From positions 10,199 to 74,198 of the forward strand of contig JBKBUN010000001.1 of the NCBI GenBank assembly GCA_046289925.1: 64,000 nucleotides of DNA. Reading direction: 5' to 3'. The first letter of the stretch is position 1, and each line of letters starts with the position of its first letter. The notes beneath the pieces are model-generated. The model saw only the letters and a list, made by a program, of their open reading frames with translations, was not told where the DNA came from and did no database searches. The position numbers and the translations under genes were made by a program. This DNA comes from Burkholderiaceae bacterium (GTDB lineage Bacteria > Pseudomonadota > Gammaproteobacteria > Burkholderiales > Burkholderiaceae_C). Shown here in pieces: positions 12,510-40,889 of this stretch.

Positions 12510-12513
12510 GGGT

Positions 12514-13221: not shown

Positions 13222-13230
13222 GCGCAAATA

Positions 13231-13248: not shown

Positions 13249-13364
13249 ATTTTGCAGCAATTTGCCCAAGAGGCCCAAAGCCCCCACAAGAATAGGGAGC
13301 GCACCCCAAACGGATTTTGCAGTGCAGCACCGCGCCCAGGCACCGCCGCACACCCGCTCGCGGC

Positions 13365-14033: not shown

Positions 14034-14132
14034 GACGGGTGGGGCTTGCACAAGGGCCGAAAGGGGCGCACGCAGCGGGCAGCCCCCGGCGCACGGCATG
14101 CGCAAAATTCTCGCACAGCCCCTGCCCCGCGC

Positions 14133-16461: not shown

Positions 16462-18540
<2,079 letters not shown>

Positions 18541-18544
<4 letters not shown>

Positions 18545-19329: not shown

Positions 19330-19390
19330 AGCCGGCTATTGTCACCCACTCCCCGATAAGCGCCCAGAGGCGCGCCGTCATAATCCGCGG

Positions 19391-22300: not shown

Positions 22301-23149
22301 AGTGCCGACACCGCCCGTCGCATGGCCGACTTTGCGCCCGGCGCACGGGTACTGGCCGTGCCGCACCCAGAGCCGGTTCTGGCACAACCGCCCGCCCCCC
22401 ACGCCCCCCGGGTGCTCGACAGCAGTGCCACACTCAAAGTGGCCGTGATCGGAGCACTGAGCGCCATCAAAGGAGCCGACGTGCTGGAAGCCGTGGCGCT
22501 GGAAGCCGCGCGCCAGCGTGCGCCGGTCGAGTTCCACCTGCTGGGCTACGGCTACCGCCACCTGCAAACGCAGCCCCGCTCGCACCTCACCGTACACGGC
22601 CCATATGCCGAAGACGACCTTACAGGCCTGCTGCGGTGGCTGCAACCCGATCTGGTGTGGTTCCCTGCCCAGTGGCCCGAGACCTACAGCTACACCCTCA
22701 GCGCGAGCCTGGCTGAGGGTCTGCCGGTGCTGGTGCCCGACATTGGGGCCATGGCCGAGCGCGTCGCAGGCCGTCCGTGGTCGTGGATCGCCCCATGGGA
22801 CCAAACGCCCGGTCAGTGGCTTCAGCAGATACTGGCCCTGCGCGAAGCCCACTTCGCCACGGGCGCAGCACCTGCGGGCGCACCGGGCACGGCACCTACC
22901 TACCCCGACTGGCACTACACCAGCACCTACCTGCAAGACTGGCCCAGCCCGGCCATCACCGACACGCCCGCTGTGCTAGACGCAGCCTTCCTGCGCGCCC
23001 ATGCACCACGCCAGCAGCCCGCCAACGCAGCCAAGGGCGTACTGCTCGAAACCGTAGTGCGCCTGCGCTCCCACCCACTGTTGCGCGGTGTGGCCCGGCG
23101 CATTCCGCTGCACTGGCAGCGGCGGGTCAAGAGCTGGCTGCAACGATGA
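19391..23149 (+). CDS. Fusion: SAM methyltransferase + beta domain + coiled coil + GT2 + GT-B glycosyltransferase
   Basis: VLDLGCGSG/ADVLEHL; heptad region ~20580-20835; DVIVPVY/LLNSD/GYGEENDF; WPETYSYTL..GLPV. Confidence 0.9.
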   Translation: MTEKNDTLHVYERSIRDGERTSLSVIGSLARPGARVLDLGCGSGSLGRYLAETKRCVVDGLTLNEAEAALARPYYRRVEVADLETADLLGLFGAGQYDHIVCADVLEHLRRPETLLNACEALLAPGGRLLYSIPNAAYSGLIAELMQGEIRYRPEGLLDATHLRFFTRRSLWRFFGHARWQIEAMETIERALPESEFRSAFDALPPAVARYLLGAPDALTYQLVGSAYPHPQPQLPPEATQALPEAAARFTCELYLRRSGVYAEARKRTQSGVVGLGRQTLRFALDAGLDGLRLDLADRPGFMHLFALRLLAADGSLTWEWDARSDAGDLLQRCAHHHLVSAAPQPSVFDGIMLLLSGDDPWLELPVPPSVWHGSALAQGGTLEVDLGWPMSADYLALSQSVRPLQEALRHTREQATQEREQLQARLADTAAALALARQRADGLEATNLTLNRERAQLQDATRRIQQDFDALAQHLRTIENSTVFRATRPIVHAKMRIDRWLGRGTAPASTTTPPPTPTPITPPAQPVDVIVPVYRGLEDTRRCIESVLSSSCHTDYRLVVINDASPEPEVTAWLRERAATDARITLLENEHNLGFVGTVNRGMALNADHDVLLLNSDTEVANDWLDRIRRAAYADRRIASVTPFSNNATICSYPRFCADNALPSGYDTARLDALCRDTLAGQAVDVPTGVGFCMYLRRDALSDVGLFDTEHFGKGYGEENDFCQRAANRGWRNLHLLDTFVLHTGGVSFGASKSPREIAAMETLRRLHPGYEPAVHRFVQEDPAREARLQLDLARMRASGLPVVLAVLHDRGGGTLRHVRELAAQLADRCTTLTLSPRPQRCVALKWAGEQEAFELLFRLDDQWDDLLATLRAVGVRHVHYHHLLGHEAPMLSLAAQLGVRYDFTAHDYYSFCTRISMTGNDNRFQGEPVPGLCACCQPHDQAPDGGTVEAWRNRHRDFLRSARYVIAPSADTARRMADFAPGARVLAVPHPEPVLAQPPAPHAPRVLDSSATLKVAVIGALSAIKGADVLEAVALEAARQRAPVEFHLLGYGYRHLQTQPRSHLTVHGPYAEDDLTGLLRWLQPDLVWFPAQWPETYSYTLSASLAEGLPVLVPDIGAMAERVAGRPWSWIAPWDQTPGQWLQQILALREAHFATGAAPAGAPGTAPTYPDWHYTSTYLQDWPSPAITDTPAVLDAAFLRAHAPRQQPANAAKGVLLETVVRLRSHPLLRGVARRIPLHWQRRVKSWLQR

Positions 23150-24474
23150 ACGACACCCCGGACACCATGAACACTGCCACCGACCCCAACCTGCCACTCA
23201 TCGAGCGTGCCCGCCTCGCCATTGAAAACGGCCAGCTCGCCGAAGCCGCCGCAGTACTGAACCAGGCCCGTGCACAGCTTCCCAATGACCCGCGGGTGTA
23301 CATGATGGGCGGCCTCATGGCCGAAAAGGCGGGCAACATCAACGGCGCGTTCCAGCTCATGGAGCGGGGGCTGTCCATCGCACCCGATTGGGCCCCAGGC
23401 ATCATCGTGCTCGCACAACTGCAGGCCCGCCAAGGGCAGTACCCCGAAGCACAGGAAAATGCTGCGATTGCGGTAGCACTGGAAGCGCGCAACCCTGTCG
23501 TGCTCGATGGTGCGATTGAAGTAGCGCACCGCACCGGCAACCTCGACCAAGCTGTGGCCTACCTGCGCAAAGCCCTGGAGGTGCAGCCCAACGACCGCCG
23601 CCTGCGCCTGCTGCTGGCCAAAGACCTGAGCCAGCTCGGCCAGCACGAAGAAGCCATGGCACTGTCCGCGGCCGTGACCACCGAAGTCCCCGAAGACCGA
23701 GCGACCCTCGAAGAGCGCATGCACATCCTGCTGGCAGCGGGCCAGATGGACGACGCCGCGCAGGTCACCGCCACGCTGCTGGCACTGGACCCTGGCAACG
23801 CCATTTACACCTACTACCATGCACGCGCCCGGGGCGAAACGCCCGCCCACCAGCCCGCAGAGATCAACCGCACGCTGTTCGACCGCACGGCCCACCTGTT
23901 CGACCAGCACCTACAGCAAGGCCTGCGTTACCGCCTGCCCCAGCAAACGGCCCAGAAGATCCTGGCCTTGTACCCTCAGAAAAAGCTCAACCTGCTCGAT
24001 TTGGGTTGCGGCACCGGCCTGCTGGGTGCGCAACTGGGCAAGATCGACGGACAGATGGTCGGCACCGACGTATCGCCCAAGATGCTGGAGCAAGCCAAAC
24101 GCCGCCAGCTCTACACCCGCCTGGAGGTGGCCGAACTGCACGACACCCTGCGCAGCACCCCGCCCGGCACCTACGACCTGATTGCCGCGCTGGACGTGTG
24201 CGTGTACGTGGGCGACCTGCGCGACGCCATTCCAGCCGCTTGGCAGGCGCTGGTGCCGGGTGGCCGGCTGGTGTTCTCGTGCGAAATCGGCCTGGAAGAC
24301 GGCCCCGACCTGCACCTCAACCCCGCCACCGAACGCTACGTGCACAAGCGCAGCCACGTCGAGGCGCTGTGCCAGGCCGCCGGGTTTGCGGTCGAGACGG
24401 AGCTGACCGTGCTGCGCTACGAAAAAGGCCAGCCGGTGCAGGGCTTTGTGATCTGGGCGCGCAAGGCGTCCTGA
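23146..24474 (+). CDS. TPR-repeat protein with C-terminal SAM methyltransferase
   Basis: Helical TPR-like N-terminus; LDLGCGTGL, DVCVYVGDL; ATGA overlap with the upstream gene. Confidence 0.88.
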   Translation: MNDTPDTMNTATDPNLPLIERARLAIENGQLAEAAAVLNQARAQLPNDPRVYMMGGLMAEKAGNINGAFQLMERGLSIAPDWAPGIIVLAQLQARQGQYPEAQENAAIAVALEARNPVVLDGAIEVAHRTGNLDQAVAYLRKALEVQPNDRRLRLLLAKDLSQLGQHEEAMALSAAVTTEVPEDRATLEERMHILLAAGQMDDAAQVTATLLALDPGNAIYTYYHARARGETPAHQPAEINRTLFDRTAHLFDQHLQQGLRYRLPQQTAQKILALYPQKKLNLLDLGCGTGLLGAQLGKIDGQMVGTDVSPKMLEQAKRRQLYTRLEVAELHDTLRSTPPGTYDLIAALDVCVYVGDLRDAIPAAWQALVPGGRLVFSCEIGLEDGPDLHLNPATERYVHKRSHVEALCQAAGFAVETELTVLRYEKGQPVQGFVIWARKAS

Positions 24475-24544
24475 CCCTGATCGCCTCTGATCGACGGCGC
24501 TCCCGGCCACGCCACCGCATCGCCACACGCGCCGAGCGCCCCAC

Positions 24545-25405
24545 TCAAGGCCGCTGCAGCAGCAAGAAGATCTCGTTGTTCAACAGCCAGTCGTCTGGAT
24601 AGCGCCCCTGCAGCGCCTGCGGAATCGGCATATCCAGGTAGCGGCGCTCCTCGCGCAGCACTGCGAAGCCCGCCTCGCGCGCCAATGCCACCAGTTCGTC
24701 GGCGGTCAGACGGTTCAACGCGCGGTATTCGTTGAACACAAAGCGCTTGTAGCCCTCCACACCGAAGTCGGCAAAGCCGAAGTCCACCTCGGCCGCGTCC
24801 ATAGGCCCCTGGTGCGCCTCGATCACCTTCCACAACGCGTCTTCGGTCGCCAGCAGGTGATGCCAGGGCACATCGTCGTACCGACGCAGGTGCGAACCCC
24901 AGGGTGAATGGAACAGCGGCTCGATCTGCAAAAAGAACACACCGCCCGGCCGCAGGCACTCCCGCAAGTCGCGCAAGATAGGCAACAGCTGGGCGCGCTG
25001 CACGTGCTCGAAGGTAGACCAGCTCATGATGCCATCCACCGGCGCATGGCGGTCTGCCAGCGGCGTGCCTGGGGCGATGGTCTCGAACGTCAGCGCGCAG
25101 GGCACACGCCGCATGCCCAGTTGCTCGCGGGCAATGCGCGGCAACTTCTCGTATTCACGGCGAATGTCAATGCCATGGATACGCGTGGCCCCGTGGCGCA
25201 ATACCAGCGCCAAGTCGGTAATGCCATCGCCACAGCCAAAGTTTAGCAACCGTGCGGTGCGCAAATCCAGCGCTGCGCCCATCCAGTAATGCACCACGTC
25301 TGCGGCGTAGTCGAAGTGCGCGCGAAACCACTCGTCGCTGATGCGCGAAGCGTCCCAGGGCGCGATACCCCATAGCCACTCCTGCAGTTGTGTCCAGATT
25401 CGCAT
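24545..25405 (-). CDS. Class I SAM-dependent methyltransferase
   Basis: LLNFGCGDG, WSTFEHV, LRPGG. Confidence 0.85.
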   Translation of the reverse strand: MRIWTQLQEWLWGIAPWDASRISDEWFRAHFDYAADVVHYWMGAALDLRTARLLNFGCGDGITDLALVLRHGATRIHGIDIRREYEKLPRIAREQLGMRRVPCALTFETIAPGTPLADRHAPVDGIMSWSTFEHVQRAQLLPILRDLRECLRPGGVFFLQIEPLFHSPWGSHLRRYDDVPWHHLLATEDALWKVIEAHQGPMDAAEVDFGFADFGVEGYKRFVFNEYRALNRLTADELVALAREAGFAVLREERRYLDMPIPQALQGRYPDDWLLNNEIFLLLQRP

Positions 25406-25458
25406 GTGAAAAACTGTGTGTGGATGCGGTCTTAGCAGGCCCTCTGCGGCGCAAAGCC

Positions 25459-26394
25459 TCAGACCACCGCCACAGCGCTGTGGTCGCCGCCGCTCGGCTT
25501 GCGCAGCACGTAGGCGTCTTGGTGGTTCCAGAAATGCACACGCGCCTCGTGCACCAGGCACGGCAAGCCCATGGTTTCGGCAATGCGCGCGTGCACAAAG
25601 GCCGGCGAGGTGAAGCTCGTGCCGTACTCGTTCACATCAATGGCCCGCGACTCGCTCGACGGTGCAAAAAAGAAGCCCTCGGCATCCAGCGACACATGGT
25701 CGTATGCAGCAGCCTTCTCGCCATGGGTGCTGAACACCAGCAACCCGCCCGGGGCCACGGCATCCCACAACACCCGAAGCCAACGCCCCCAGGTGCTGCG
25801 TGGCAGGTGGCTGAACAGCGACAGCACGAACACCAGGTCATACCGCTGCGGCCACTCCAGCGCTTCCGGCAGCACCGACGACACCAAGCCCTGCACGCCA
25901 AAAGTCTGGCGCGCAAAGTCCACGGCATCGGGCACCACGTCAGAAACCGTCACCCGCTCGGCCCCCAGCACCTTGACCAAGTGCCGCGTGAAGCGGCCAT
26001 GGCCGCTGGCAAACTCCAGCACCGAGCCGGTCTTGAGCAGCGGCTGTTCTACCGCTTCAAGCAGCAGCATCAGCTCCGACAGCGTGCGCCAACCGTCGGC
26101 AAAGTAATCGCGCAGCGGGTTGCGGCTGGAGGGATGCCCGGCAAAAAAACCAAAGATATCGTCCTGCGACGAAACGGTGCAGTCCAGGCCCATGATGTTG
26201 GCAAACGAGCCATTCAGCGCATGCTGCTCGATCAACGCATGGGCAGCCAGCATGGTATCGGGCTCAGCGCGGGCGCGCTGCAGCACCTGGGCGGCGGCCT
26301 CTCGCTGGCCCATTTGCAGCAGTCGCCGTCCTTCTTCCAGCAAAGCCGCTCCGGGGCCTGCTGCGGAACGTTCGGTCAAGGGCGTCAAAGTCAT
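25459..26394 (-). CDS. Class I SAM-dependent methyltransferase
   Basis: VLEFASGHGRF, SLFSHL, VAPGGLLVFSTHG. Confidence 0.85.
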   Translation of the reverse strand: MTLTPLTERSAAGPGAALLEEGRRLLQMGQREAAAQVLQRARAEPDTMLAAHALIEQHALNGSFANIMGLDCTVSSQDDIFGFFAGHPSSRNPLRDYFADGWRTLSELMLLLEAVEQPLLKTGSVLEFASGHGRFTRHLVKVLGAERVTVSDVVPDAVDFARQTFGVQGLVSSVLPEALEWPQRYDLVFVLSLFSHLPRSTWGRWLRVLWDAVAPGGLLVFSTHGEKAAAYDHVSLDAEGFFFAPSSESRAIDVNEYGTSFTSPAFVHARIAETMGLPCLVHEARVHFWNHQDAYVLRKPSGGDHSAVAVV

Positions 26395-26476: not shown

Positions 26477-27778
26477 TCAAGACCAATGGTGCGGCAACCG
26501 CACCAAACCCGGCAGGGGCTTCGGAAAGATGAAACGGAAGTGCAGGAACTGAAACCACTGGTCGTATACCGCCAGCCCCGTTTCGTCGAACAGGAACGCG
26601 CTGATCACATAGTCCCCGCTGTGCAGCGGCAGGTCGGGGAATGTCAGCACCGACCGCCAAGTACCATCGGGCAGCGCCTGCGGCGCCGCACCGTCTTCGT
26701 GCGTGGCCAGCGATGTAATGCCCACGCCTTTGGACTGCTCGATCATGAAACCGATATGGGGCCGCTCAGCCCCACGGCCACGGGCAGTGATGGTCACCAC
26801 CAGGTCCTGGCCTTGCAGCACAGGCGGCTGGCCGTCCTGCGGCTCGGTCAGGTTGGCAACCTCCACCGAAAGAATGCAGGCGCCCCCGTGGTCGGCTGGC
26901 GATGCAGTCGGGCGTGCGGCTGCCGCATCGCTGGCCGGCGCCGGGGCTACAAGTTCGCTCGCAGAGTCGGCTTCGACCGCCCCCGCCGGCAGACCATCTG
27001 CCGCGTCGCGCGCACGGGTGTGCACGTCGTAGGCAGCCAGCACGGGCTCGGTAGGCCCGAACATGGCCACCTCTCCTTTGCGCAACCATAGCGCCTGGTC
27101 GCACAAGTGTCGGATGTGGTACGGGCTGTGCGAGCAAAACAGAATCGTGCAGCCGTTGTTGCGAAAAGCCGTGATGCGCTCCACGCACTTCTTCTGAAAG
27201 TGCTGGTCGCCCACAGCCAGCGCCTCGTCAATGATCAGCACATCAGGCTGCACCGCCGTGACCAGCGCAAACGCCAGGCGAACCGTCATGCCCGAGGAAT
27301 AGGTTTTCACCGGACGGTCCAGCGCTTCGCCCAGTTCGCAAAACTCGATGATGGAAGGCTCAAGCCGCTGCATCTCATCGCGGTCGATGCCGATCAGGCT
27401 GCCACCGAAGTACAAATTGTCGCGGCCGCTGAAGTCAGGGTGAAAGCCTGCGCCCAACTCCAGAATGGCCGTCACACGGCCCACGCGGTCGATGCGACCT
27501 TCACTGGGCTGCAGCGTGCCCGCCAACAGCTTGAGCAACGAACTCTTGCCCGCCCCGTTGTCACCGATCACGCCAATGCACTGGCCACGCTGCAATTCAA
27601 ACGACACATTGCGCAAGGCCCAGTGGCTGCGATAGGTGACATGCCCGGCAAGCAGCGCACGCAGCCGAGCCCGGGGGGAAGGGTACAGACGGTATTCCTT
27701 GCCCACACCCTGCACGCGCAACACGGTGTCGGCCGAAGGCGCAGCGGCGCTCGCCATTAGGGGGGAGTGCGCACTCAT
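26477..27778 (-). CDS. wzt: Polysaccharide ABC exporter ATPase with C-terminal Wzt_C domain
   Basis: GDNGAGKS, YSSGM, IIDEALAVGD; extra beta-rich C-terminal domain. Confidence 0.93.
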   Translation of the reverse strand: MSAHSPLMASAAAPSADTVLRVQGVGKEYRLYPSPRARLRALLAGHVTYRSHWALRNVSFELQRGQCIGVIGDNGAGKSSLLKLLAGTLQPSEGRIDRVGRVTAILELGAGFHPDFSGRDNLYFGGSLIGIDRDEMQRLEPSIIEFCELGEALDRPVKTYSSGMTVRLAFALVTAVQPDVLIIDEALAVGDQHFQKKCVERITAFRNNGCTILFCSHSPYHIRHLCDQALWLRKGEVAMFGPTEPVLAAYDVHTRARDAADGLPAGAVEADSASELVAPAPASDAAAARPTASPADHGGACILSVEVANLTEPQDGQPPVLQGQDLVVTITARGRGAERPHIGFMIEQSKGVGITSLATHEDGAAPQALPDGTWRSVLTFPDLPLHSGDYVISAFLFDETGLAVYDQWFQFLHFRFIFPKPLPGLVRLPHHWS

Positions 27779-28578
27779 AGCCAGTCCACCAATTGGTCGC
27801 GGCTGCGCGCCACCAGCAGCGACAGCACGCCCGCCAGCAGCAGCACCCAAGCCAGGGTGACACCCCAGGTGGCCAGGGGCGGCCACGCCCCTTGCAGCAG
27901 CACTTGCTGGTAGCCCTGCACAAGCCCCGTCATGGGATTGAGCCACAGCGCCCAGCGCCAGCGCTCAGGAAACAGCGCCATCGGAAACAGAATGGGCGAC
28001 AGGTAAACACCCACCGAGAGTGCAAAACCCACAGCCTGCACCGTGTCGCGCAGCGCCGCCGCCAAGATGGCCAGCACATACGCCAACAGCAGGCACAGCA
28101 ACAATTGAAGCCCCAACAGCGCCGGCAGTGCCAGCCAGAATGCGGGCGCGCCCCGGTGCAGCGGCCAGTAGGCCAGCGCCACCAGCAGCAGCAACGGGCC
28201 GTACACCACCGCACTGGCCATCACCGCACGGGCCATGAAAAGCACGGGCGGCAGCGGGTTCTTCTGCAGCAGCCCGCCTGCATCGATCAGGCTGCTCATG
28301 CCGCGCGAAACGGCGTCACAAAACGCCATCCAAGGCAAGGCGCCCACCACCAAAAATGCACCGACGGCCCGCGTGGGCGCGTTGTCGCCCAGGCGCATGT
28401 TGAACACCACGTCGAACACCAAATAGAAGGCGGCCACCGTCAGCAGGGGCTGTAGGTAGGGCCACACAATGCCCATGGCCGTGCCACTGTGGCGGGCGGC
28501 CACTTCACGCCGCGTGAGCACCCACACCAGTCGACGGCCGCGCCACAGGGCCTGGCATTCGTTCCACAAAGCGGTCAT
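27775..28578 (-). CDS. wzm: Polysaccharide ABC exporter permease
   Basis: ABC-2 permease: GIVWPYLQPL, SPILFP, LNPM; overlaps the wzt start. Confidence 0.92.
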   Translation of the reverse strand: MTALWNECQALWRGRRLVWVLTRREVAARHSGTAMGIVWPYLQPLLTVAAFYLVFDVVFNMRLGDNAPTRAVGAFLVVGALPWMAFCDAVSRGMSSLIDAGGLLQKNPLPPVLFMARAVMASAVVYGPLLLLVALAYWPLHRGAPAFWLALPALLGLQLLLCLLLAYVLAILAAALRDTVQAVGFALSVGVYLSPILFPMALFPERWRWALWLNPMTGLVQGYQQVLLQGAWPPLATWGVTLAWVLLLAGVLSLLVARSRDQLVDWL

Positions 28579-29159: not shown

Positions 29160-30122
29160 TTACTGCCGGGGGGCCACGGCGCGCTGTGCCGCGGGCACGG
29201 CGGCTTCGTAGCGCTTGGCAAAGGCTTCGATGGCCGCGGCATCGGGCTTGGCATTGGCCTGCAGACGCTGGGCTTCGGCCACGCGGGCGTCCTGGATGAT
29301 GCTGGCACGCACCTCCTTCACCAAATCGTCTTTCACCTCATCAAACGGGCGCACACCGGCGGGCTTGCGGTCCAGCAGTTGGATGATGTGGTAGCCGAAC
29401 TGCGACTCGACCAGATCGCTCATGTCGTTCGCATTCTTCAGGGCAAACGCTGCTTGCTCGAACGAAGGCACCATACGGCCCCGGGCAAAAAAGCCCAGAT
29501 CACCGCCCTTTTCAGCACTGCCCTTGTCGGCCGACTTTTCAGTCGCCAGTTTGGCAAAGTCGGCGCCGCCCTTGAGGTCTTGGAGAATCTTTTCGGCTTC
29601 TGCCTTGGACTCGGGCGTGGTGCCCGAAATCAAGATGTGGCGCACCCGAACCTGCTCATCGGCCTTGAAGCGGTCTGGGTTGGCGCGGTACAGCGTGCGG
29701 GCCTTCGCCTCGGCGGCTTCTTGGGAGGGCGCGGCCTTTTGGTCAATACGCTCGATCAGCGCATCGGACAGCACCTTGTCCATGGCCACCTTCAGCGTGG
29801 CAGCCACCACCGGATCTTTGTCCAGGCCTTGGGCCAATGCCTCTGCCGCCATGGCACGGCGCACATACAAGTTGTGGGCCACCTGGCCCACCGTTTGAGG
29901 ACGCGACAGCACCAGCGGCCGCATTTCGGGCGGCATGCGCAGCGCGTCGGCCTGAATGTCCAGCGTGGTAATGGAAATCTTGTCGCCCTGCACCAGGGGC
30001 ACAGCGTCGTTGGCCTGGGCTGCAAACGCAGCACCGCCCAGCAGCGCCATCACCGCCACGGCACGAAGGGGGCGCAGCGCGCGGCCCCGGGTCATGTCAA
30101 CACACAAGCTCATAGTCACCAT
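29160..30122 (-). CDS. Periplasmic parvulin-type peptidyl-prolyl isomerase
   Basis: Signal peptide ...AFAAQA; RHILI, FAKLATEKS, GGDLG, SQFGYHII; start could be 30095 or 30113. Confidence 0.92.
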   Translation of the reverse strand: MVTMSLCVDMTRGRALRPLRAVAVMALLGGAAFAAQANDAVPLVQGDKISITTLDIQADALRMPPEMRPLVLSRPQTVGQVAHNLYVRRAMAAEALAQGLDKDPVVAATLKVAMDKVLSDALIERIDQKAAPSQEAAEAKARTLYRANPDRFKADEQVRVRHILISGTTPESKAEAEKILQDLKGGADFAKLATEKSADKGSAEKGGDLGFFARGRMVPSFEQAAFALKNANDMSDLVESQFGYHIIQLLDRKPAGVRPFDEVKDDLVKEVRASIIQDARVAEAQRLQANAKPDAAAIEAFAKRYEAAVPAAQRAVAPRQ

Positions 30123-30146
30123 GCAAGAAGAAGTGAATTCACCAAT

Positions 30147-30176
30147 AAAAAAGGCGGGGGTCGCCCCCCGCCTTTT
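30147..30176 (-). terminator. Strong Rho-independent terminator after the surface protein gene
   Basis: AAAAAAGGCGGGGG-TCGC-CCCCCGCCTTTT. Confidence 0.88.
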
Positions 30177-30209
30177 GAGATCGCATTGCTGCGATTAAGT
30201 GCCCACGAA

Positions 30210-31919
30210 TTACTTCGTGAAGCGGTGCGGCCAGGTGATACCGTAGGTACCGGCCTTGCCAGCCGAAGCTTGCGGGTTCTCCAGCTTGATGAACGAAGCG
30301 CCCAGGATCGGCAGACCCTTGCCACCGTTGGCGGTGTTGAGCACGCCCCAGCCGTTTTCGTACGAACCGGTCGTCACAGTACGGCGAGCAACGCTGGCGC
30401 CCAGAACCGAGGTGCCCGTGTCACGGAAGGCCAGCACGCTGACTTCACCGCAGAACTGCACGCTGGTGGACGTACCAGGCGAGAACACCGGCACCGTGCT
30501 GCCCGTCGTTTCTTCGCGGTCGAAGAACTTCTGGCTGTCTGCACGCACGCAGATGTTGCCATTGGCATCGACGCTGGTGTTACCAGCCTCGATCGGCGCA
30601 CCTGCTTGTGCGGGGTAGAACATGTCGTCAGCGTGACCCCCTGCGCCCAGGTCAGAGAACAGGCGATACTGTGTCGAAGCCGTTGCCAGGGCCAGCGTGG
30701 TGCCAGCAGCGTAATTGGCGGCCACATTGTAACGGCGGGTGGGCATCGAGAACACCCAGTCGGTCTTGGCCGAGATCACGGCGTCGTTGGCGTACTGGTT
30801 GGTCACCGAGTTCACGCGCAGAGCAGCTTGCAGGGCCTGGGCTTGTGCCAGGGGGGCCGCAGCTCCAGGAGCAGCGTAGAACGGGGTCGACATGTCGGGC
30901 AGGTCGAAGTTCAGCAGGGCCAGCGCAGGCACAGAGGTGGGAGCCGCGTTGGCATTCGTCACCACTTGCGTCGTGCGGAACAGCGGGTCGGCCGTCAGGG
31001 TGTTGGCATCGGCAGTCACCGCCACAGCAGGCGTGTCCAACTGCGGGAAGTGCACGAAGTTACCGCGAGTACCACCGGTCAACTGGATGGCCGTAGCGGC
31101 ACCAGAGAACGTGGTGGTTTGAGGCACGTTGATGATGTACCAGTCACCCATCAAACCCGTGGTGGGGGTCTGCAGACCACGTTGAGCTGCAGCAGCTTCG
31201 GTAGTGAAGCTGGTCGTTGCAATGGTGTCGACCAGCGTACGGGCTGCCGAGCCTGCCACCGAGCAAGGCGCCGTGCCGTTCACGTGCTTGGTAGCGGTGT
31301 ACAGGGGCGAACGCTGCGTACCAGCAGCCGAGGCGGTGCCGTCAGCAGTCCAGGCCGTCACGTTGGTGATGTCGGCCATGTTGAAGATTTCAACATAACC
31401 TTCGCGGGTCAGGTTGGCCTTGGTGGCAGCGTCAGCGTACGAGGGCAGACGGGTTTGCACGAAAGGCTGGGCCACGTTCTTGGTCAGGGCGGGCACCGTG
31501 CAGGTGTTGTCGGCCGTGATGATGTTGGCCACGCCATCGGCGCCAGCCATCACAGCAGCGGTCCACACATCGCCAGGCGACATGAACACCTGGAAGTCCA
31601 GCACGTCATCAGAGTTGGAGGCGCTGCGGAAGCGAACCTTCACCAGCTTGCCGTTGGCTTGGTCGGTGTTGGTCACGTGCAGAACGGTCATGTTGCCGTT
31701 TTGCGCGTTGTAGTAGGGCACCACCAGAGCGTGACCCACGCCGCCTTCGGCCACAGCCAGGCCGGTAGCGTCGCGCGCGGCCATCTTGCCGTCGGTAGCA
31801 ATGGTTGTCGCATCGACAGCCGCACCAGTACCGGCGATTACGCCAGCCAGGGCAGAGCTAGCGAAGCCCAGGCCACCAATCATGGCAGCAATGCTCAGGG
31901 CCATCACATTTTTCTTCAT
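30210..31919 (-). CDS. Exported Ala/Thr/Gly-rich cell surface protein, candidate S-layer subunit
   Basis: Sec signal MKKNVMALSIAAMIGGLGFASSALA; GGAG RBS; frequent GCT/GGT/CGT codons; own terminator; no catalytic motifs seen. Confidence 0.75.
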   Translation of the reverse strand: MKKNVMALSIAAMIGGLGFASSALAGVIAGTGAAVDATTIATDGKMAARDATGLAVAEGGVGHALVVPYYNAQNGNMTVLHVTNTDQANGKLVKVRFRSASNSDDVLDFQVFMSPGDVWTAAVMAGADGVANIITADNTCTVPALTKNVAQPFVQTRLPSYADAATKANLTREGYVEIFNMADITNVTAWTADGTASAAGTQRSPLYTATKHVNGTAPCSVAGSAARTLVDTIATTSFTTEAAAAQRGLQTPTTGLMGDWYIINVPQTTTFSGAATAIQLTGGTRGNFVHFPQLDTPAVAVTADANTLTADPLFRTTQVVTNANAAPTSVPALALLNFDLPDMSTPFYAAPGAAAPLAQAQALQAALRVNSVTNQYANDAVISAKTDWVFSMPTRRYNVAANYAAGTTLALATASTQYRLFSDLGAGGHADDMFYPAQAGAPIEAGNTSVDANGNICVRADSQKFFDREETTGSTVPVFSPGTSTSVQFCGEVSVLAFRDTGTSVLGASVARRTVTTGSYENGWGVLNTANGGKGLPILGASFIKLENPQASAGKAGTYGITWPHRFTK

Positions 31920-31979
31920 ATCAAGAACTCCAGTTAAAAAGTTGGTAAGCGCAACTACCACGATTGATTACGCTTAGGC

Positions 31980-31988
31980 ATCGTAGCA
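31980..31988 (-). promoter_or_regulatory. Putative extended -10 promoter for the surface protein gene
   Basis: Minus strand TGcTACGAT about 60 bp upstream of ATG; no clear -35. Confidence 0.4.
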
Positions 31989-32126
31989 CAGCGCGTTGAG
32001 GGCTTGTACAGCGGGCGGCCGGTGAAACCGCCTGTTGTTGATGAAAAGCAACACTGGTCAGAGCGGTGTGGCAGAACCTCCTTCGCAGGGACTAGTGGCA
32101 ACGTTGCAAGACCGGATCAACACCGT

Positions 32127-32549
32127 TCACAGGTCTTGGTGACGCCACCACTGGCCGTCTTCGAGCAACCACGTCTCGTCCACGTACGTGTCAATCGTAC
32201 CCAAATTCATTCCCAGCAGGGCGGGTTTGGCGCTCAATTTCATGCGGGCCGTGCACTTTTCCCCACTTTCGCAGGTGACCTTGAAGGGAGTGGCAGCCTC
32301 AATGGTGACACCCGCGCCAAATTGGCGGCGGAACTGTTCGGCATCTTTGAGCTTGCGGTAGGCGGGCGTGGAAAGCGCCCAGGCTTTTTCGTATTGGCCC
32401 GCGATGCGAGCCTTCCAGTAGTCGGTGGCGCGCTGGGCCACCATTTCTTCTGGCGTGGCCGATGACATGCCGGCACAACCCGACAAAGCGAGCACAGACG
32501 CCGACAAGGCAATGGTGGCCCAGGTACGGGCACGGTGGTGCAGGGTCAT
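32127..32549 (-). CDS. Small lipoprotein of unknown function
   Basis: Lipobox LSGC after hydrophobic stretch; GGAG RBS; Cys pair CESGEKC. Confidence 0.82.
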   Translation of the reverse strand: MTLHHRARTWATIALSASVLALSGCAGMSSATPEEMVAQRATDYWKARIAGQYEKAWALSTPAYRKLKDAEQFRRQFGAGVTIEAATPFKVTCESGEKCTARMKLSAKPALLGMNLGTIDTYVDETWLLEDGQWWRHQDL

Positions 32550-32811: not shown

Positions 32812-35301
32812 TCACTGCGGTGCAGCATTGGGCGACGGGGTGGGCGTGGGGCCCGGTGCGCGGCGTGTGGCGGCTTCCTGCTCTTTGAGCTCCAGCACGC
32901 GCAGGCCGCGCAGGCGGTCGCGCAGGTCGTCGCTGACTTCGCGGATGTCCACGTCCGAGCGCACCACCCGCGGCGTGATGACCACGAGCAGTTCCGTCCG
33001 CCGACTTGTGTTCTCGGTAGTGCCAAAAAGGTTCCCAAGTATCGGCACGTTGCTCAGGCCGGGCAGGCCCGATTTGCCGGAGGTGCCGTTTTCTTGAATG
33101 AGGCCGCCCATGACGATCGACTCGCCCGAACGCACCGCCACCTTGCTGGACACCTGGCGCTGCAAGAACTGGCGCTGGCCTGTGGCTTCGGTATCAACCG
33201 CCCCCACGTCGGTGACGGACTGCTCCACCTGCATGGTGACGATGTTGCCCGCATTGACCGATGGCGTGACGCTGAGGTTGACCCCGGTGTCTTTGTATTG
33301 GATGTTGGTGGTGCGCACGTTGCCTTCGGTGCTGACGGTTTCGCCGGTCTTGATGGGCTGCTGCGTGCCCACAGAAATGGCGGCGGTGTGGTTGTCCAGC
33401 ACCATCAGCGAGGGACTGGCGAGCACCTTGACAAAGGTTTTCTTGGACAAAGCGTTGAGCACGGCCCGCACATCGCCCGCGGGGCTGCGCAGCGTGTACG
33501 AGAAACCTGCAGGCGGGTTGGAGAATACGCCATTGGCCGCATTGGCCAGCGCCCCCCGGCCACGCCAGTCGGTGGTGGAGCGGCTGTCGTTGAAGGCCCA
33601 CTGCAAACCAAAGCTCAGGTCGTCTGTGAGCGAGACTTCGATGATGCTGGCCTCGATCATGACCTGGGTGGGCGGCAGATCGAGCCGCTTGAGCGTGGCT
33701 TCGATCTTGTGGTAGTCGGTGCGCGTACCCCACACCAGCACAGAGTTGTTCAACTCGTCTGCCATCACGCGGATACCGCCAATGTTGGCCACGGCAGCAC
33801 TCTGCTGAGCGTTGTTGGTGCCGAGCTGGTTTTGCGTGGCTGTGCGGCCCAGCAGGCCCGTGTTGCCAAAGCCGGTGCCTGTGGTGCCGCCCAGGCGGTT
33901 GGCGGTATTGCCCAGCGCTGAGCTGGAGCCGAGCGTACCGAAACCGCTGGTACCCAAAGTGCTCTGCCCCATGGTAGAGCCCGAGAACGTGCCCAGCCCG
34001 GGCGCTACGCCGCTGTTGGCCTGGGGCGTGGCGGTGGTGCCGGTGCCGCCAAAGATGCCGCTGAGCACCGTAGCCAAGTGGCGCGCATTGCCGTTTTGCA
34101 CCTGGTAGATGAACAGTTGCGGCTCTGCACTGTTGTCGCTGGGCTGGTCCAGACGCTCAATCCAGCGGCGGGCTTCGTCCAGATAAGCCGCACGCGGAGT
34201 GACCACCAGAATGCTATTGATACGCTCGATGGGCATGATGCGCAGCGCACCAAACAGGGGGTTGCCCTCGCCCAGCATGGCATTGCCTTGCGCCGACGCC
34301 GCGTTGGCCGCTGCTGCATTGGCGCTGCCGCTGGCCACCGGGCTTGCTCCGGCCGCAGCGCCACCGCTGACCAGCCGCAAGGCTGCCTCGACCTCGCGGG
34401 TGGTGGCGTGCTTGAGCGGAAACACACCGACCGACATGCCTTTGAGCAGATCCACGTCGAAGGTGTTGATGAGGTCCATCCAGCCTTCGGTCTGGCTGCG
34501 GGTGCCTGCGAGCACGAGCAGGTTGCGCACGGTGTCCACGCGTACCAGCGCATCGCTGGGCATCAAGGGCCGCAGAATGGCTGCCATTTCGGCGGCGCCA
34601 ATGTATTGCAGTGTGACCACCACCGCACCGTAGCCCGGCGGCAACCCGGGCGAAGCCGGACCTGCCTGGCGCACGGCGGCACCGATCGAGCGCAGCACTT
34701 CGGGGCGGCCGACCTGGTAGGCACCGCGAGCGTCGCGGCTCAAAGCCAGGCCGTTGGCCTGCAAAGCGCTTTCCAGCAGGAACACGGCTTGGTCAGGTGG
34801 CACTGGGCGGCGCGTGGACAAAGTGACCGTGCCCGCAATGGGCGGGTGCAGCACGAAGTTGAAGCCCAGCATGTCGCCCAGGATGGTGCGCACCACCTCG
34901 GCCACTGGAGCGTCTCCACCCTCGAACGATACAGGCGCGCCTTCAATGGGGGGTACCTGTTTGGGGGCGGCAATGACCTGATCGTTGCCGCGAAGTATGC
35001 GGGGTTCGCCGGCCGAAGCCGCAGCGGACTTGGCGGCACTGCCCGCAGCCGCACCGTCGCCAGCAGGGGATGCTGTTGCACGCACGGCCGCGGCCGGTGC
35101 GGCCTGAGAGCCGGATTGCGCAGCAGCCGGTGCAGCAACGGCGCTGGCCCCAGCGGGCTGTACGGCCGCAGGAGCCCCCCCCTCAGGCTGGGTGACCATG
35201 TTGGTGCCACCACCAAAGGTGGCCGCCGGTGGCTGCTGGGCCACGGCGACCTGGCACACGGCGAGCGCAATGGCACCCAGAGCGAAACGGTAAGAGGTCA
35301 T
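32812..35301 (-). CDS. gspD: Type II secretion secretin
   Basis: QVMIEASIIEV, VLASPSLMVLDN, LSNVPILGNLF, ELLVVITPRVV. Confidence 0.95.
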   Translation of the reverse strand: MTSYRFALGAIALAVCQVAVAQQPPAATFGGGTNMVTQPEGGAPAAVQPAGASAVAAPAAAQSGSQAAPAAAVRATASPAGDGAAAGSAAKSAAASAGEPRILRGNDQVIAAPKQVPPIEGAPVSFEGGDAPVAEVVRTILGDMLGFNFVLHPPIAGTVTLSTRRPVPPDQAVFLLESALQANGLALSRDARGAYQVGRPEVLRSIGAAVRQAGPASPGLPPGYGAVVVTLQYIGAAEMAAILRPLMPSDALVRVDTVRNLLVLAGTRSQTEGWMDLINTFDVDLLKGMSVGVFPLKHATTREVEAALRLVSGGAAAGASPVASGSANAAAANAASAQGNAMLGEGNPLFGALRIMPIERINSILVVTPRAAYLDEARRWIERLDQPSDNSAEPQLFIYQVQNGNARHLATVLSGIFGGTGTTATPQANSGVAPGLGTFSGSTMGQSTLGTSGFGTLGSSSALGNTANRLGGTTGTGFGNTGLLGRTATQNQLGTNNAQQSAAVANIGGIRVMADELNNSVLVWGTRTDYHKIEATLKRLDLPPTQVMIEASIIEVSLTDDLSFGLQWAFNDSRSTTDWRGRGALANAANGVFSNPPAGFSYTLRSPAGDVRAVLNALSKKTFVKVLASPSLMVLDNHTAAISVGTQQPIKTGETVSTEGNVRTTNIQYKDTGVNLSVTPSVNAGNIVTMQVEQSVTDVGAVDTEATGQRQFLQRQVSSKVAVRSGESIVMGGLIQENGTSGKSGLPGLSNVPILGNLFGTTENTSRRTELLVVITPRVVRSDVDIREVSDDLRDRLRGLRVLELKEQEAATRRAPGPTPTPSPNAAPQ

Positions 35302-35347
35302 GGGAACACGCATGGTTCGATGATCGGTGGGGCAGTGGGGCAGGTCG

Positions 35348-36076
35348 TCAACGGGCGCTTCCGCCAAACACAGGGCGCGGCGCGGTGGCTGCGGAGGCCG
35401 CCGGCGCTGCCGTTGCAGGGGGTGTCGCAGCCTCCGCCCTGGGCGCAGGGGCACCCCCTGCGTTTTGCGCTGCGGCTGCCGCAGCGGCGGCCTGCACGGC
35501 GGCCTGCACGGCGGACGGCACGGCAGCACGGCCCGGCGGGGGGGCTGGCTGGCCGGTGGCAACCGGTTGGGCCACGCCGGTGAATTGGGTGAGCGCTGCC
35601 CGCTGCAGGGGCACGGCACGGGTTTCGTCGCCACGGGAGAAGGTGGCCTCGCGTGCGCCCACGGAGCGCAGCGTCCAGCCTTCTACGGCCTGGCCCACGC
35701 GCAAGCGGCGGTGTTTGCCATCGAGCGTGAGAATCAAGCCAGACACGTGCCCTTGGAAGATGCCGGAAATCTTGATGTCCTGAAGACGGTCCACCTGCTC
35801 GGCCACCACGGGTTTGGGCGGCGGCGGGGGCGGCGGCGGGCGGCGGGTGGGCGAAAACAGCGGACGCTCCAGCATGGCCAGCAGCGCAGCGGGGTCGACA
35901 GGCTGGGCGTCGGGCACCTGCGGGATGAGCGAGGCCACGTCTGTGCGACGGGCCAGCGGCGGATCCCACTGGGCGTTACGCAGTTGACCCTCGGGTGTGA
36001 ACCACATCCAAGCCAGAACGAACGCAGCGGCGGCACTGGCGATCCACAAAACGGGGGCGGGGCGCAGCACAGTCAT
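35348..36076 (-). CDS. T2SS GspC/XpsN-like inner-membrane protein
   Basis: N-terminal TM, RPLFSPTRRP + polyPro, HR-like domain; located between gspM and gspD. Confidence 0.75.
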   Translation of the reverse strand: MTVLRPAPVLWIASAAAAFVLAWMWFTPEGQLRNAQWDPPLARRTDVASLIPQVPDAQPVDPAALLAMLERPLFSPTRRPPPPPPPPKPVVAEQVDRLQDIKISGIFQGHVSGLILTLDGKHRRLRVGQAVEGWTLRSVGAREATFSRGDETRAVPLQRAALTQFTGVAQPVATGQPAPPPGRAAVPSAVQAAVQAAAAAAAAQNAGGAPAPRAEAATPPATAAPAASAATAPRPVFGGSAR

Positions 36077-36642
36077 CACTGGCCCCTCATCACTGTCAGG
36101 TTGAACTGGGTGGTCAACCGGGGTGCCACCGCCGGGTTGCCATTGAGCAAACCACCCGCCACCTGTGCGTCTACGTCGTTGACGATGATGACGGGGCGTA
36201 CAGAGTCAAGCGCTGACAGGGCCGCGTAGAACGCAGCGGCCTCGCCCTCTGCTCGCACTACGATGGTGATGCGGTCGTGGAACTTGTCGGTCTTGGCGGG
36301 CATGACCTGGCTGCTGACGACCGTGAGCCCGGCAGCCGTGAACAGGTCACGCACCCGCTGCTGGGCGACGTTGCCGGTCTGGGTGGCGTCCTGCGAGGCG
36401 GGGTACACTAGCTTGGCATGCAGCGCACGGACCGCCTCCAATCCGGACGTCCAGTCAGACGCTTGCTCTCGCAGCCCCTGCAGGCGGGCGTAGCGCGGCT
36501 CCAACTCTGCCATGCGGGCCTCTGCCCAACGGTGCTTGTGGTAGATGTACCAGCCTCCCACAGCCAAGGGGGTGAGCACCAGCGCGAGCAGCAAGACGCC
36601 CACCAGGGCTGGGCGCAGTGAGGTCAGGGAACTCGCATTCAT
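36076..36642 (-). CDS. gspM: T2SS protein M
   Basis: TM + coiled coil + ferredoxin-like domain; operon position. Confidence 0.82.
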   Translation of the reverse strand: MNASSLTSLRPALVGVLLLALVLTPLAVGGWYIYHKHRWAEARMAELEPRYARLQGLREQASDWTSGLEAVRALHAKLVYPASQDATQTGNVAQQRVRDLFTAAGLTVVSSQVMPAKTDKFHDRITIVVRAEGEAAAFYAALSALDSVRPVIIVNDVDAQVAGGLLNGNPAVAPRLTTQFNLTVMRGQ

Positions 36643-38009
36643 GGCTTGGTAGGAGCAGAGGCCGGAGTGGCGGGCTTGGCGGCAGGCGAGGCCCCGAAGG
36701 TGGCACCGCCCCCGAATACCGCCCCTCCCGTGCTGGCTGACGGCGTGCGCGCCACAGCGGGCACGGAAGCGGGGACAGAGGCAGGCACCGCGGCCGGCGC
36801 TGATGCCAAGCCCGATGCTGGTGCAGACGGCGGCATAGCTGCCGGGACGGCAGCGGGCACGGAGGCTGGTGCAGCAGCGGCAGCAGAGGTCGCGCCTTCG
36901 GGTGACGACGGTACCGATGCAGCGGACGCCGCGCCAGAGACTGCCGCCGCAGGAGGCATCCTGGCGTAGAGCGCAGCGTCAAGCTGAAGTTCCACCACAA
37001 ACTGTTCTTTGTTGGTGACGCCGTACCGCGTGGCCGGAGTGGGTGCCTTCACATCCCGAAACCCGGGCTGGTCGCCCAGCAGTTGCATCAAGGCCGAGGC
37101 ATTGCCGGTCAGGCCTGAAAGCGTGAGCTTGGCTCCCTGGAGTTTGAAGCTCTGAATGGCGGTGTCATCGGGCAGAATGCGTGTGAGGGTGTCGAGCAGT
37201 TTGAGTGCGTCGTACTGGCCTTCGATCAACTCCGTGACTTCGCGGATTTGCTCGACTGTGCGCAGCAACTGCTCGCGCTCTGCCACCACCGGGTAGGTAG
37301 CGCGCACCAGTTCATCGTAGGCATGCACTGCATCGATGGCGCGCAGGCGCAACTGCGCAGTGGGCGTTACGGCGATGGCCAACAGCAACGCCAGCAGCAG
37401 TCCAACCAACGCCAGCATACCGCCCTGCCGGCGCTGAGCATGCGCGCGGCGGGCGGCTTCGCCAAACCCAGGCAGCACAATGACATCACCCGGACGGCCC
37501 TGGGATACGGGCACCCAAACTTCTGGCACGATGCCTTGGGGCAGGCGTGCAGCCTGCGTGGCCAGGTAGGCCTCAATTTGCGGACGCGAGGCCATGACCA
37601 GTTCGGCCATGGAGCGCCCCGTGGATGCATCGGCCTGCCGGTGAAAGGCCCAGACCAGATCGGTCGCCACGAAGGGGCTATGGGCACGCGCTTCCAGAGC
37701 CATGGCGGCGCTCTGATTGTCGGGGGACAGATCGTCAGGCAGCGGCAGCGTGCGGCGCAATACCCAGTCTTCCGGCAGTTCTACCGCCACGAAGCGCGGA
37801 GCAGGCGCCCGGGGGTCTCGGGTGCGGATACCCGCGGACGTCCAGAGCACTTCATCGCCGCGCGCACGCACATACCGTACGTCGGCAGACGGCATCAGCC
37901 ACCGCCCTAGACGGGAAGACTGGAAGAACTGCCCGAGTGCGCGCAGGGCGTTGCCCGCCATCCGGAGATCGAGACCGAAGAGTTTGGGCTCCGAGGAAAG
38001 GGCTGGCAT
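36639..38009 (-). CDS. gspL: T2SS protein L (PilN-like periplasmic domain) with Ala/Pro-rich tail
   Basis: Cytoplasmic actin-like part, TM, LDTLTRILPDDT; operon position. Confidence 0.82.
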   Translation of the reverse strand: MPALSSEPKLFGLDLRMAGNALRALGQFFQSSRLGRWLMPSADVRYVRARGDEVLWTSAGIRTRDPRAPAPRFVAVELPEDWVLRRTLPLPDDLSPDNQSAAMALEARAHSPFVATDLVWAFHRQADASTGRSMAELVMASRPQIEAYLATQAARLPQGIVPEVWVPVSQGRPGDVIVLPGFGEAARRAHAQRRQGGMLALVGLLLALLLAIAVTPTAQLRLRAIDAVHAYDELVRATYPVVAEREQLLRTVEQIREVTELIEGQYDALKLLDTLTRILPDDTAIQSFKLQGAKLTLSGLTGNASALMQLLGDQPGFRDVKAPTPATRYGVTNKEQFVVELQLDAALYARMPPAAAVSGAASAASVPSSPEGATSAAAAAPASVPAAVPAAMPPSAPASGLASAPAAVPASVPASVPAVARTPSASTGGAVFGGGATFGASPAAKPATPASAPTKP

Positions 38010-38015
38010 GAAATC

Positions 38016-38891
38016 TCAGGGGTTGGAGGGGCGCACAGGAACGAAATCGCGATGCGTATGAAATGTGCGCCAAGGCAGACCTTCACGGATGCTGGCCGAC
38101 CCGCCAAGTTCCACCCACCGGATGGTGCGGGCCACTCGGCCGTCTTGCAACCGGACCTGCGCTTCGATGCGCAATCTCCGGACTGCCCCATTGTCGATCC
38201 ACTCTGCAGACAAACCACTCAGGTCTTGCAGACCGTCTCCAGCCTCACGCCGCTGCGCAAACTGCTGGGCAGCGGCGATATTGCCGCCCGCCAACACCGC
38301 AAGTACCGGCACCGGTGCTGCCATGGGGTTGACCCGCCCACTGCCGCGAGCGTCGACTGTCACGAGCGGCGCGAGTCTAGCATAGAGGTCCTCGGACATT
38401 CCGGGCACTCGCATAAGGTCCTCAATGGCGTCGAACCGCTCGCGGACACTGCCCTGCACAGTGCCCAAACGGTAGGACACGATGGCATCCACTACGGCCT
38501 GGGCCGGTGCTTCGGCCAGCCCGCCAGCGACACGTAACAATTGCAACAGCAAGCTAGGTGGGGCGCGGTTGAGGTCCACATAGCCATTCAGCGGCGTACT
38601 CTCTACCACGATGGTCTGCCCGCGGTATGGCACCTCGACACGCACTGCACGCTGCGTGACTTCAGGACGCTGATACACCTGTTGTAGAAAGAGCATCAGT
38701 GCGGCATCGCCCTGCGCCCCTGCCTCAACCTGCTGGCGCAGGGCTCCCAGCAGTTGGGCTTCTTGCCGCACAGAAGCCACAGCGCCGGTGGCGATGATGG
38801 ACAGCGCCACCACCAACCACAGCACAGCGATCAACACCATGCCTCGCAGGCGGCGTGTGCCACGGCCCCGAATCGGACGAACGCGCATCAA
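38016..38891 (-). CDS. gspK: T2SS minor pseudopilin K
   Basis: RG|MVLIAVLW lacking E5; VDLNRA, EDLMRVPGM, VNPMAAP. Confidence 0.88.
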   Translation of the reverse strand: MMRVRPIRGRGTRRLRGMVLIAVLWLVVALSIIATGAVASVRQEAQLLGALRQQVEAGAQGDAALMLFLQQVYQRPEVTQRAVRVEVPYRGQTIVVESTPLNGYVDLNRAPPSLLLQLLRVAGGLAEAPAQAVVDAIVSYRLGTVQGSVRERFDAIEDLMRVPGMSEDLYARLAPLVTVDARGSGRVNPMAAPVPVLAVLAGGNIAAAQQFAQRREAGDGLQDLSGLSAEWIDNGAVRRLRIEAQVRLQDGRVARTIRWVELGGSASIREGLPWRTFHTHRDFVPVRPSNP

Positions 38892-39571
38892 GAGCCCCCT
38901 CCACCGAACACGGCCTCTGCGGAGGTAGCGTCGCCGCCAGGCAGCGCCCGCAGCGGTACTACGACGGGCATCCAGGGACCACCTGCGCTTTCCAGCCGCA
39001 GGACGACGCGGGCGGGAAAACGGTCAGCATACGGCCAGTTGTCTGTCCAGACGGCGGGCTGCACCGAGGTATCCTCATAGCTCAGGCGCAAACTGCGCAC
39101 CTCGCGCACCAGTTCAATCGAGGCGGCCAAGTCCCAGACCGGTGGTACTGCAGGCACGGCCCACGGCTGGTACCGCAGGACCAACACCTTGCCTTGGGGG
39201 CGCGTTTCAACAGCCAGACGCATGAAGTGCCGCCCGCCAATTCCGGGGCGAACCGGCATCACCCCGACCCACTCCAGGGATGCATTCTCGGCAGCAAACC
39301 ACACGCTCCGCTGGGAACCACCTTCGGGGCTCGGGGGACGACGCTCTGCCGATACACGGGACAACACGGTACGAAGGAAGGCCGTGGCCACGCGCACATC
39401 GTCGGACTGGGCGAGGCGGATTTCCACCCGCTCTTGCGTCTGCGCGGCCGTGCGCAAAGCAGAGGCCATGGCCAGTACCACCAGCGAGAGCAAAGTCATG
39501 ACGACCAGGAGTTCGAGCAGGGTGAACCCCCTCATGGGACCCCCGACTGGTATCGCCGCCCGAACTTTCAT
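38888..39571 (-). CDS. gspJ: T2SS minor pseudopilin J
   Basis: RG|FTLLELLV prepilin motif. Confidence 0.88.
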   Translation of the reverse strand: MKVRAAIPVGGPMRGFTLLELLVVMTLLSLVVLAMASALRTAAQTQERVEIRLAQSDDVRVATAFLRTVLSRVSAERRPPSPEGGSQRSVWFAAENASLEWVGVMPVRPGIGGRHFMRLAVETRPQGKVLVLRYQPWAVPAVPPVWDLAASIELVREVRSLRLSYEDTSVQPAVWTDNWPYADRFPARVVLRLESAGGPWMPVVVPLRALPGGDATSAEAVFGGGGS

Positions 39572-39963
39572 GGGCGGCTCCCGGGTGGTGGTGGCTTGCG
39601 CTCCGGCCGGACGGTGTGAATCACCCACTCGCGATCACGTCTGCCATCGGACCAGCGCAGCACCAATTCGATGTCGTGCAGGCGCGGGGCCTGGGGATCA
39701 GCCGCAGGAGCCAGCACTGTGCTACGCACCGTCCACCGGAAGCCGGATGCCTCACCTGCTTCGTTCCATCCGTCCTCGAACACAGCATCTTTCTGGGCCA
39801 GCAGGGAGTCGGCCAAGGTCACCGCCTGCTGGTAGCGGCTTAAGTCGCCTGTATTGCGCGCAGTACCGCCCAAGGTCTGGTAAATGAGCCCCAGCGCAAG
39901 CGCCAGGATGGACAAGGCGACCAATGACTCCAGGAGGGTAAAGCCGCGCTGCGAAGGCCTCAT
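39568..39963 (-). CDS. gspI: T2SS minor pseudopilin I
   Basis: QRG|FTLLESLV; ATGA overlaps. Confidence 0.88.
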   Translation of the reverse strand: MRPSQRGFTLLESLVALSILALALGLIYQTLGGTARNTGDLSRYQQAVTLADSLLAQKDAVFEDGWNEAGEASGFRWTVRSTVLAPAADPQAPRLHDIELVLRWSDGRRDREWVIHTVRPERKPPPPGSRP

Positions 39964-40406: not shown

Positions 40407-40415
40407 GCCCAACTG

Positions 40416-40871: not shown

Positions 40872-40889
40872 CCTGAAGCAAACCAAAAA

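Follow-up and report, generated by a model that had tools for sequence, protein, structure and literature searches.

An npdA orthologue in a Burkholderiaceae genome, a likely surface layer protein gene beside type II secretion and polysaccharide export genes

We analyzed a 64,000-nucleotide stretch of DNA from a Burkholderiaceae bacterium (GenBank assembly GCA_046289925.1, contig JBKBUN010000001.1, positions 10,199 to 74,198 of the forward strand), referred to as the window. An initial annotation had proposed that one open reading frame (ORF) on its minus strand encodes an abundant structural substrate of a type II secretion system (T2SS), possibly a surface layer (S-layer) protein. By homology, the product is an orthologue of the S-layer protein NpdA and matches no enzyme or porin fold, which bears out the S-layer proposal. 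The gene is present as a single copy in the assembly, which is 88% complete. It is very likely that its product is synthesized in large amounts, passes the inner membrane via the Sec pathway, acquires two disulfides, leaves the cell through the adjacent T2SS and forms a lattice bound to lipopolysaccharide (LPS). In this genome, that reading is based on sequence homology, the order of the genes and the conservation of expression signals, and the 59% identity to a proven coat protein indicates that the gene likely makes the coat of the host.

In relatives, deleting npdA was shown to abolish the S-layer and the nanopods, the loss of a bead-like S-layer on deletion being documented only for Paracidovorax citrulli and Delftia Cs1-4. 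Protection against Bdellovibrio has been reported for a P. citrulli mutant. NpdA of relatives forms an oligomer above 150 kDa that resists sodium dodecyl sulfate (SDS), and the Delftia S-layer has a tetragonal lattice that reassembles only with LPS. An NpdA-like layer was found in 15 of 16 further npdA-bearing cultures (PMC10765051). Other literature drawn on for relatives and comparison systems comprises PMC2739507, PMC3110197, PMC4572682, PMC4413209, PMC12827227, PMC7821379 and bioRxiv 10.1101/2025.04.15.648961.

Homology to NpdA

The homologue search retrieved at least 2560 homologues among 7998 candidates scored, and those with a name are mostly annotated as 'cell surface protein' from Acidovorax and Delftia. 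The query aligns to the protein P0289 (ABM34689.1, UniProt A1TUQ1_PARC0) with 59% identity and 547 bits, residues 1-569 matching residues 1-529. The element PARC0 in the UniProt name is presumably strain AAC00-1 of P. citrulli. The mature mass computed for P0289 is 52,393.6 Da (52,398.6 and 52,562.7 Da for two other cluster members), and the mature mass published for NpdA of strain AAC00-1, the deletion of which removes the S-layer, is 52,394 Da (PMC10765051). Because strain record and mature mass agree, P0289 is identified as AAC00-1 NpdA; the orthologue of P. citrulli DSM 17060 clusters with it.

The likeness to AAC00-1 NpdA (AAVE_RS20655) extends over the full length and includes a 25-amino-acid signal, four aligned cysteines, the gsp cluster upstream and the lack of a Pfam domain, while the host protein is 36 residues longer and differs in variable loops. 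The global identity is 55% to the orthologue of the Delftia acidovorans type strain, which has been verified there by mass spectrometry, and 62% to that of A. delafieldii 2AN; nanopods have been reported for both strains. For Delftia, of which D. acidovorans Cs1-4 is the reference strain for NpdA, the comparison covers orthologues at 46-65%. A quick tree, from which L002, L012, L041, L044 and L055 were left out, places the query among NpdA orthologues, and the top-ranked Atlas cluster, with a score of 0.98, bears the name 'surface layer protein NpdA'. Members of the NpdA family have been defined by BLASTP (PMC10765051), and the query shows the traits of this family: near full-length homology, a predicted Sec signal of about 25 amino acids, no conserved domain and an upstream gsp cluster. 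The family was already described in 2011 and 2023, and the proposal of a poorly described S-layer fold therefore holds only for the atomic fold, which is undescribed.

The protein features listed by the initial annotation were confirmed. The N-terminus combines a basic, a hydrophobic and an A-x-A segment, and the resulting Sec signal stands as a prediction that shares most of its residues (Table 1) with the 25-amino-acid NpdA signal, itself predicted by SignalP-6 (PMC10765051). The protein is rich in Ala (17.0%), Thr (12.3%), Gly (9.0%) and Asn (5.6%) and contains 5.8% Ser, and its four cysteines (positions 140, 219, 457 and 490) are each retained in 143-145 of 148 diverse relatives. It ends with Lys and not with the Phe typical of outer membrane barrels, a Phe end being present in 1 of 149 aligned sequences. 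In agreement with the claim that no enzyme motif is present, scanning the 569-amino-acid protein against Pfam and NCBIfam gave no match at E<=0.01.

The distribution of npdA is patchy, with a match in 5 of 60 sampled relatives. A locus of the same genus with the same gene order (L080; G001:C4:40000-59000) encodes an NpdA that is only 42% identical to the query and a GspD that is 60% identical, and the nearest homologues of the query (88-90%) include one from an Acidovorax metagenome-assembled genome; together, these observations suggest that the coat gene diverges quickly or is exchanged. In another locus (L078; G027:C1:3186000-3205000), four npdA paralogues with 33-35% identity to the query stand in tandem at positions 7800-14353. 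No match to gsp or wzm/wzt was found within this 19-kb locus, and the same genome also has a canonical npdA locus (L079). The array could supply cassettes for varying the coat; four npdA copies have been reported for A. avenae. A 60% match to NpdA on a 418-bp scaffold of an Isoptericola (actinobacterial) assembly (L055) is probably contamination.

Expression signals and codon usage

Expression signals were compared with the loci of relatives, which were found by two conserved peptide patterns; L002, L012 and L055 were left out since they have no usable start, and the resulting counts are not independent because the loci are kin. The ribosome-binding site, the strong terminator and the TAA stop proposed initially were all recovered (Table 1). 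The extended -10 motif TGnTAnnnT is located 40-110 nt upstream of the gene in 52 of 52 relatives, compared with 42 of 2459 genes of the host genome. A scan for standard sigma-70 -35/-10 promoters gave 0 sites, and a hexamer resembling a -35 element, spaced 19 nt from the extended -10, is poorly conserved. None of 200 shuffled sequences was as stable as the terminator, and a similar hairpin follows the stop codon in 49 of 50 relatives. The TAA codon at the 30210 end of the ORF is shared by 48 of 51 relatives; in the host genome, TAA is the stop of 28 of the 60 genes with the most ribosome-like codons, compared with 333 of all 2595 genes called.

The 54-nt leader is near invariant across Acidovorax-type genomes, the NpdA proteins of which are only 50-60% identical. 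A structured RNA was considered and rejected, because the leader shows no unusual fold (z 0.28) and has no Rfam match; it might bind a protein or enhance translation. In most relatives, a second conserved box with CAACA (32033-32047, minus strand) precedes the extended -10 by about 50 nt and is possibly an activator site or an upstream promoter.

Codon usage was evaluated for 2595 genes called with a simple caller, using ten ribosomal-protein genes around the L2 match as reference. The npdA orthologue uses GCT for 37 of 97 Ala and GGT for 23 of 51 Gly codons, compared with 7% and 13% genome-wide. These two codons stand out from the neighboring genes as initially claimed, whereas CGT (8 of 20) is ribosome-like but no different from the neighbors (gspE 18/47, gspC 8/20). 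In the log-ratio of ribosomal versus genomic codon usage, npdA holds rank 5 of 2595, behind four genes of which three belong to the reference set.

Gene neighborhood, export and anchoring

For the neighborhood, 54 loci were examined; upstream counts are based on the 51 loci with >=4.5 kb of flanking sequence and downstream counts on the 48 with >=5 kb. The features of the window are compiled in Table 1.

Table 1. Features of the npdA locus (positions within the window)
Feature	Position	Strand	Remarks
npdA orthologue, likely S-layer protein	30210..31919	-	569 amino acids; 59% identity (342/576) to P0289
Predicted Sec signal peptide	31845..31919	-	Residues 1-25; 21/25 residues as in the published NpdA signal
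Predicted N-terminal beta-sandwich with insertions	31080..31739	-	Mature residues 36-255
Predicted C-terminal beta-sandwich with insertions	30213..30872	-	Residues 350-569
GGAG ribosome-binding site	31928..31931	-	8 nt before ATG; 50/52 relatives
Extended -10 promoter candidate	31980..31990	-	TGnTAnnnT
Leader, predicted 5' untranslated region	31920..31973	-	54 nt; strong sequence conservation
Intrinsic terminator	30144..30176	-	12-bp stem; -25.2 kcal/mol; z -4.85
Predicted lipoprotein between gspD and npdA	32127..32549	-	140 amino acids; 51/51 loci
Type II secretion cluster gspE-F-G-H-I-J-K-L-M-C-D	32812..43851	-	Several matches below curated cut-offs
rmlBDAC dTDP-rhamnose genes	45896..49297	-	Upstream of the gsp cluster, beyond gspE; all four above NCBIfam cut-offs
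Parvulin-type peptidyl-prolyl isomerase (PPIase)	29160..30122	-	PF13616; 46/48 loci
wzm-wzt polysaccharide ABC exporter with Wzt_C domain	26477..28578	-	PF01061, PF00005, PF14524; each 48/48 loci
Methyltransferases, large methyltransferase/glycosyltransferase, GT2, WecA-like initiating transferase	17441..26394		Large methyltransferase/glycosyltransferase and one methyltransferase: each 43/48 loci

The gsp cluster and the lipoprotein gene lie upstream of npdA in the same orientation, and GspD is encoded upstream of npdA in 51 of 51 loci; a preceding cluster of about 12 gsp genes has also been published (PMC10765051). The predicted 140-amino-acid lipoprotein has no Pfam match and falls into the Atlas cluster 'putative lipoprotein', the nearest clusters with a family being DUF4019, DUF4864, DUF4878 and DUF4440/SnoaL_3; it is a candidate for the secretin pilotin. 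A second GspD above the cut-off is present elsewhere in the genome, apparently split across two contig ends, and the gsp system beside npdA could therefore be dedicated. GspE (42124-43851, minus strand) carries an N-terminal MshE-type c-di-GMP-binding motif (NF053729; 57.6 bits versus a cut-off of 38), which suggests that S-layer export may be under c-di-GMP control. Between rmlC and gspE, a 631-amino-acid gene (43976-45871, plus strand) shows a weak GH42-like match (E 5e-4) below the cut-off.

On the downstream side, which the 2023 NpdA paper leaves aside in its main text in favor of the gsp side (PMC10765051), the PPIase and wzm/wzt genes are conserved neighbors (Table 1) and probably belong to one surface system with npdA. 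The claim that npdA is insulated from its downstream genes applies to transcription only. The large methyltransferase/glycosyltransferase and one methyltransferase are each present in 43 of 48 loci, and a tetratricopeptide repeat (TPR)-methyltransferase gene in the glycan cluster (23146-24474, plus strand) is common to only 1 of 48 related loci.

From this arrangement, a route to the surface can be proposed. NpdA would be produced in bulk, likely from its own promoter, exported across the inner membrane by Sec, as its signal peptide predicts, and folded in the periplasm with two disulfides, perhaps helped by the adjacent PPIase. It would then exit through the adjacent GspD and T2SS, a step that was left untested in the 2023 study (PMC10765051), and dock on O-polysaccharide that the rml and wzm/wzt genes on either side would supply. 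Two TM1070/ASRT-like beta-sandwiches with insertions are predicted for each subunit, and the layer would likely serve as a barrier to Bdellovibrio-type predators and as a sheath of vesicle nanopods.

Similar gene orders are known from other S-layer systems. The VapA locus of Aeromonas hydrophila AH-1 shares the order rmlBDAC, T2SS, S-layer gene, wzm, wzt, and in Aeromonas veronii Hm21 avsA is reported to lie between a gene for a T2SS secretin and one for O-antigen. AvsA, however, has 460 codons and three predicted domains, two of them immunoglobulin-like, whereas the host protein has two predicted TM1070-like domains; the host locus in addition contains the lipoprotein and PPIase genes flanking npdA and the 631-amino-acid gene between rml and gsp. 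The likeness between VapA/AvsA and host NpdA is one of gene order. Slr4 of Pseudoalteromonas tunicata also has a Sec signal and is reported to be encoded directly after a T2SS cluster, but the NpdA paper treats it as a separate, mainly marine family (PMC10765051).

As an alternative for the downstream genes only, the glycan handled by wzm/wzt, the methyltransferases and the glycosyltransferases might be attached to the S-layer protein instead of forming the O-chain of the anchoring LPS. The tight linkage of wzm/wzt to npdA in all 48 loci, the Thr and Ser content of the protein and the reported migration of native NpdA above 150 kDa are compatible with such a glycoprotein. We nevertheless consider it unlikely: the bands above 150 kDa have been read as SDS-resistant oligomers, reassembly required LPS, the equivalent wzt of Aeromonas is required for O-antigen, which is abolished by wzt deletion in A. 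hydrophila AH-1, and the LPS of Delftia Cs1-4 reportedly contains 49% rhamnose, which fits a supply of LPS by rmlBDAC. No oligosaccharyltransferase was found among the neighbors scanned.

Several observations qualify the picture of an abundant, lattice-forming NpdA that is expressed from its own promoter. The classic codon adaptation index (CAI) of npdA is 0.684 and its rank only 513 of 2595, probably since this index favors GC-ending codons, which every gene of the host uses. RNA contigs of relatives, mostly <95% identical, span the ORF in all four runs examined (4 of 20 candidates, all 20 with a word share <=0.10) and reach upstream to 32065-32173, past the predicted start; the conserved -10 motif supports a promoter of its own for npdA, but read-through from the gsp operon may thus occur. 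Contig depth over npdA is far above that of its neighbors, but such data cannot rank genes and were not counted as expression evidence. Against a lattice, 1 of the 16 further npdA-bearing cultures had no clear layer (PMC10765051). In P. valerianellae, whose orthologue L004 shares 64% identity with the query, npdA is reported to be present and a clear beaded layer absent; the family also diverges fast, as illustrated by the same-genus locus in G001. In the host lineage, NpdA might accordingly be abundant at the surface or secreted without forming an ordered lattice. Considering the NpdA-like layer in the other 15 cultures and the intact operon context and expression signals of the host locus, we judge the absence of a lattice to be very improbable, and retain the LPS-bound lattice as the favored reading.

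Predicted fold and biological meaning

The structure model of the npdA product is confident (pLDDT 90.7) and beta-rich with short strands. Foldseek searches with the whole model against PDB and BFVD and with the C-terminal half against PDB gave nothing at E<=0.001, and PDB sequence searches yielded a chance match as the best single-protein hit (E 0.37) and none with a 149-row profile; no solved NpdA-family structure was found in them. A secreted enzyme or an outer membrane porin is hence effectively refuted, given the homology over the full length to a protein with a proven S-layer role, the lack of Pfam, NCBIfam and Foldseek matches, the Lys end and a model in which both halves match beta-sandwiches and not barrels.

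The best structural match by VIA-align of both predicted halves, the N-terminal one as part of a longer model, is the ASRAH superfamily (TM1070, PDB 1NC7; ASRT, PDB 2II7), at 6-11% identity. No S-layer chain was among the matches listed, which does not show that the folds differ. At the sequence level, hhalign detected no repeat between the two halves (probability 0.12%), the ASRAH profile PF07100 had no match, and the hhalign probability for ASRT was below 1% and within shuffled scores, with a template that has only 4 similar sequences. The ASRAH fold is an eight-stranded beta-sandwich of TM1070 topology in which a Trp opening strand 1 and an Asn closing strand 2 are conserved. By eye only, the invariant N84 of NpdA ends the second strand of the N-terminal half, and no Trp precedes the first strand. 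Prediction of a homodimer (mature residues 24-520, 2 copies) scored 0.00 and is uninformative on binding either way.

On these grounds, NpdA can tentatively be pictured as two diverged sugar-binding beta-sandwiches of the TM1070/ASRT (ASRAH) type in tandem. It would build its lattice by gripping a methyl-capped, rhamnose-containing O-polysaccharide that the rml and wzm/wzt genes around it would provide, a proposal to which we give limited credence. Secreted ASRAH proteins are described as dyads or tetrads with predicted binding of surface sugars, while NpdA lies outside the three families described for this superfamily and differs from it by the missing PF07100 and profile-profile signals, the low identity and large insertions. 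A literature search, which did not extend to subscription journals, found nothing that joins S-layers with the sensory rhodopsin transducer/ASRT fold, and Delftia, Comamonas and Acidovorax are all absent from the main texts of a review of S-layer structures and of an AlphaFold-based survey of S-layers (PMC12175726; bioRxiv 10.1101/2024.05.28.596244). If true, the proposal would provide the first ASRAH-fold S-layer and would explain why assembly of the Delftia layer depends on LPS.

In itself, the gene is ordinary, being one more npdA in a Comamonadaceae-type genome. Its value for S-layer structural biology lies in a confident model without a close solved relative that twice points to the TM1070/ASRT fold, and the conserved polysaccharide-export cluster beside it is a testable candidate for the anchor. 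For the organism, the presence of npdA predicts a protein coat and, likely, resistance to Bdellovibrio and the formation of nanopods.
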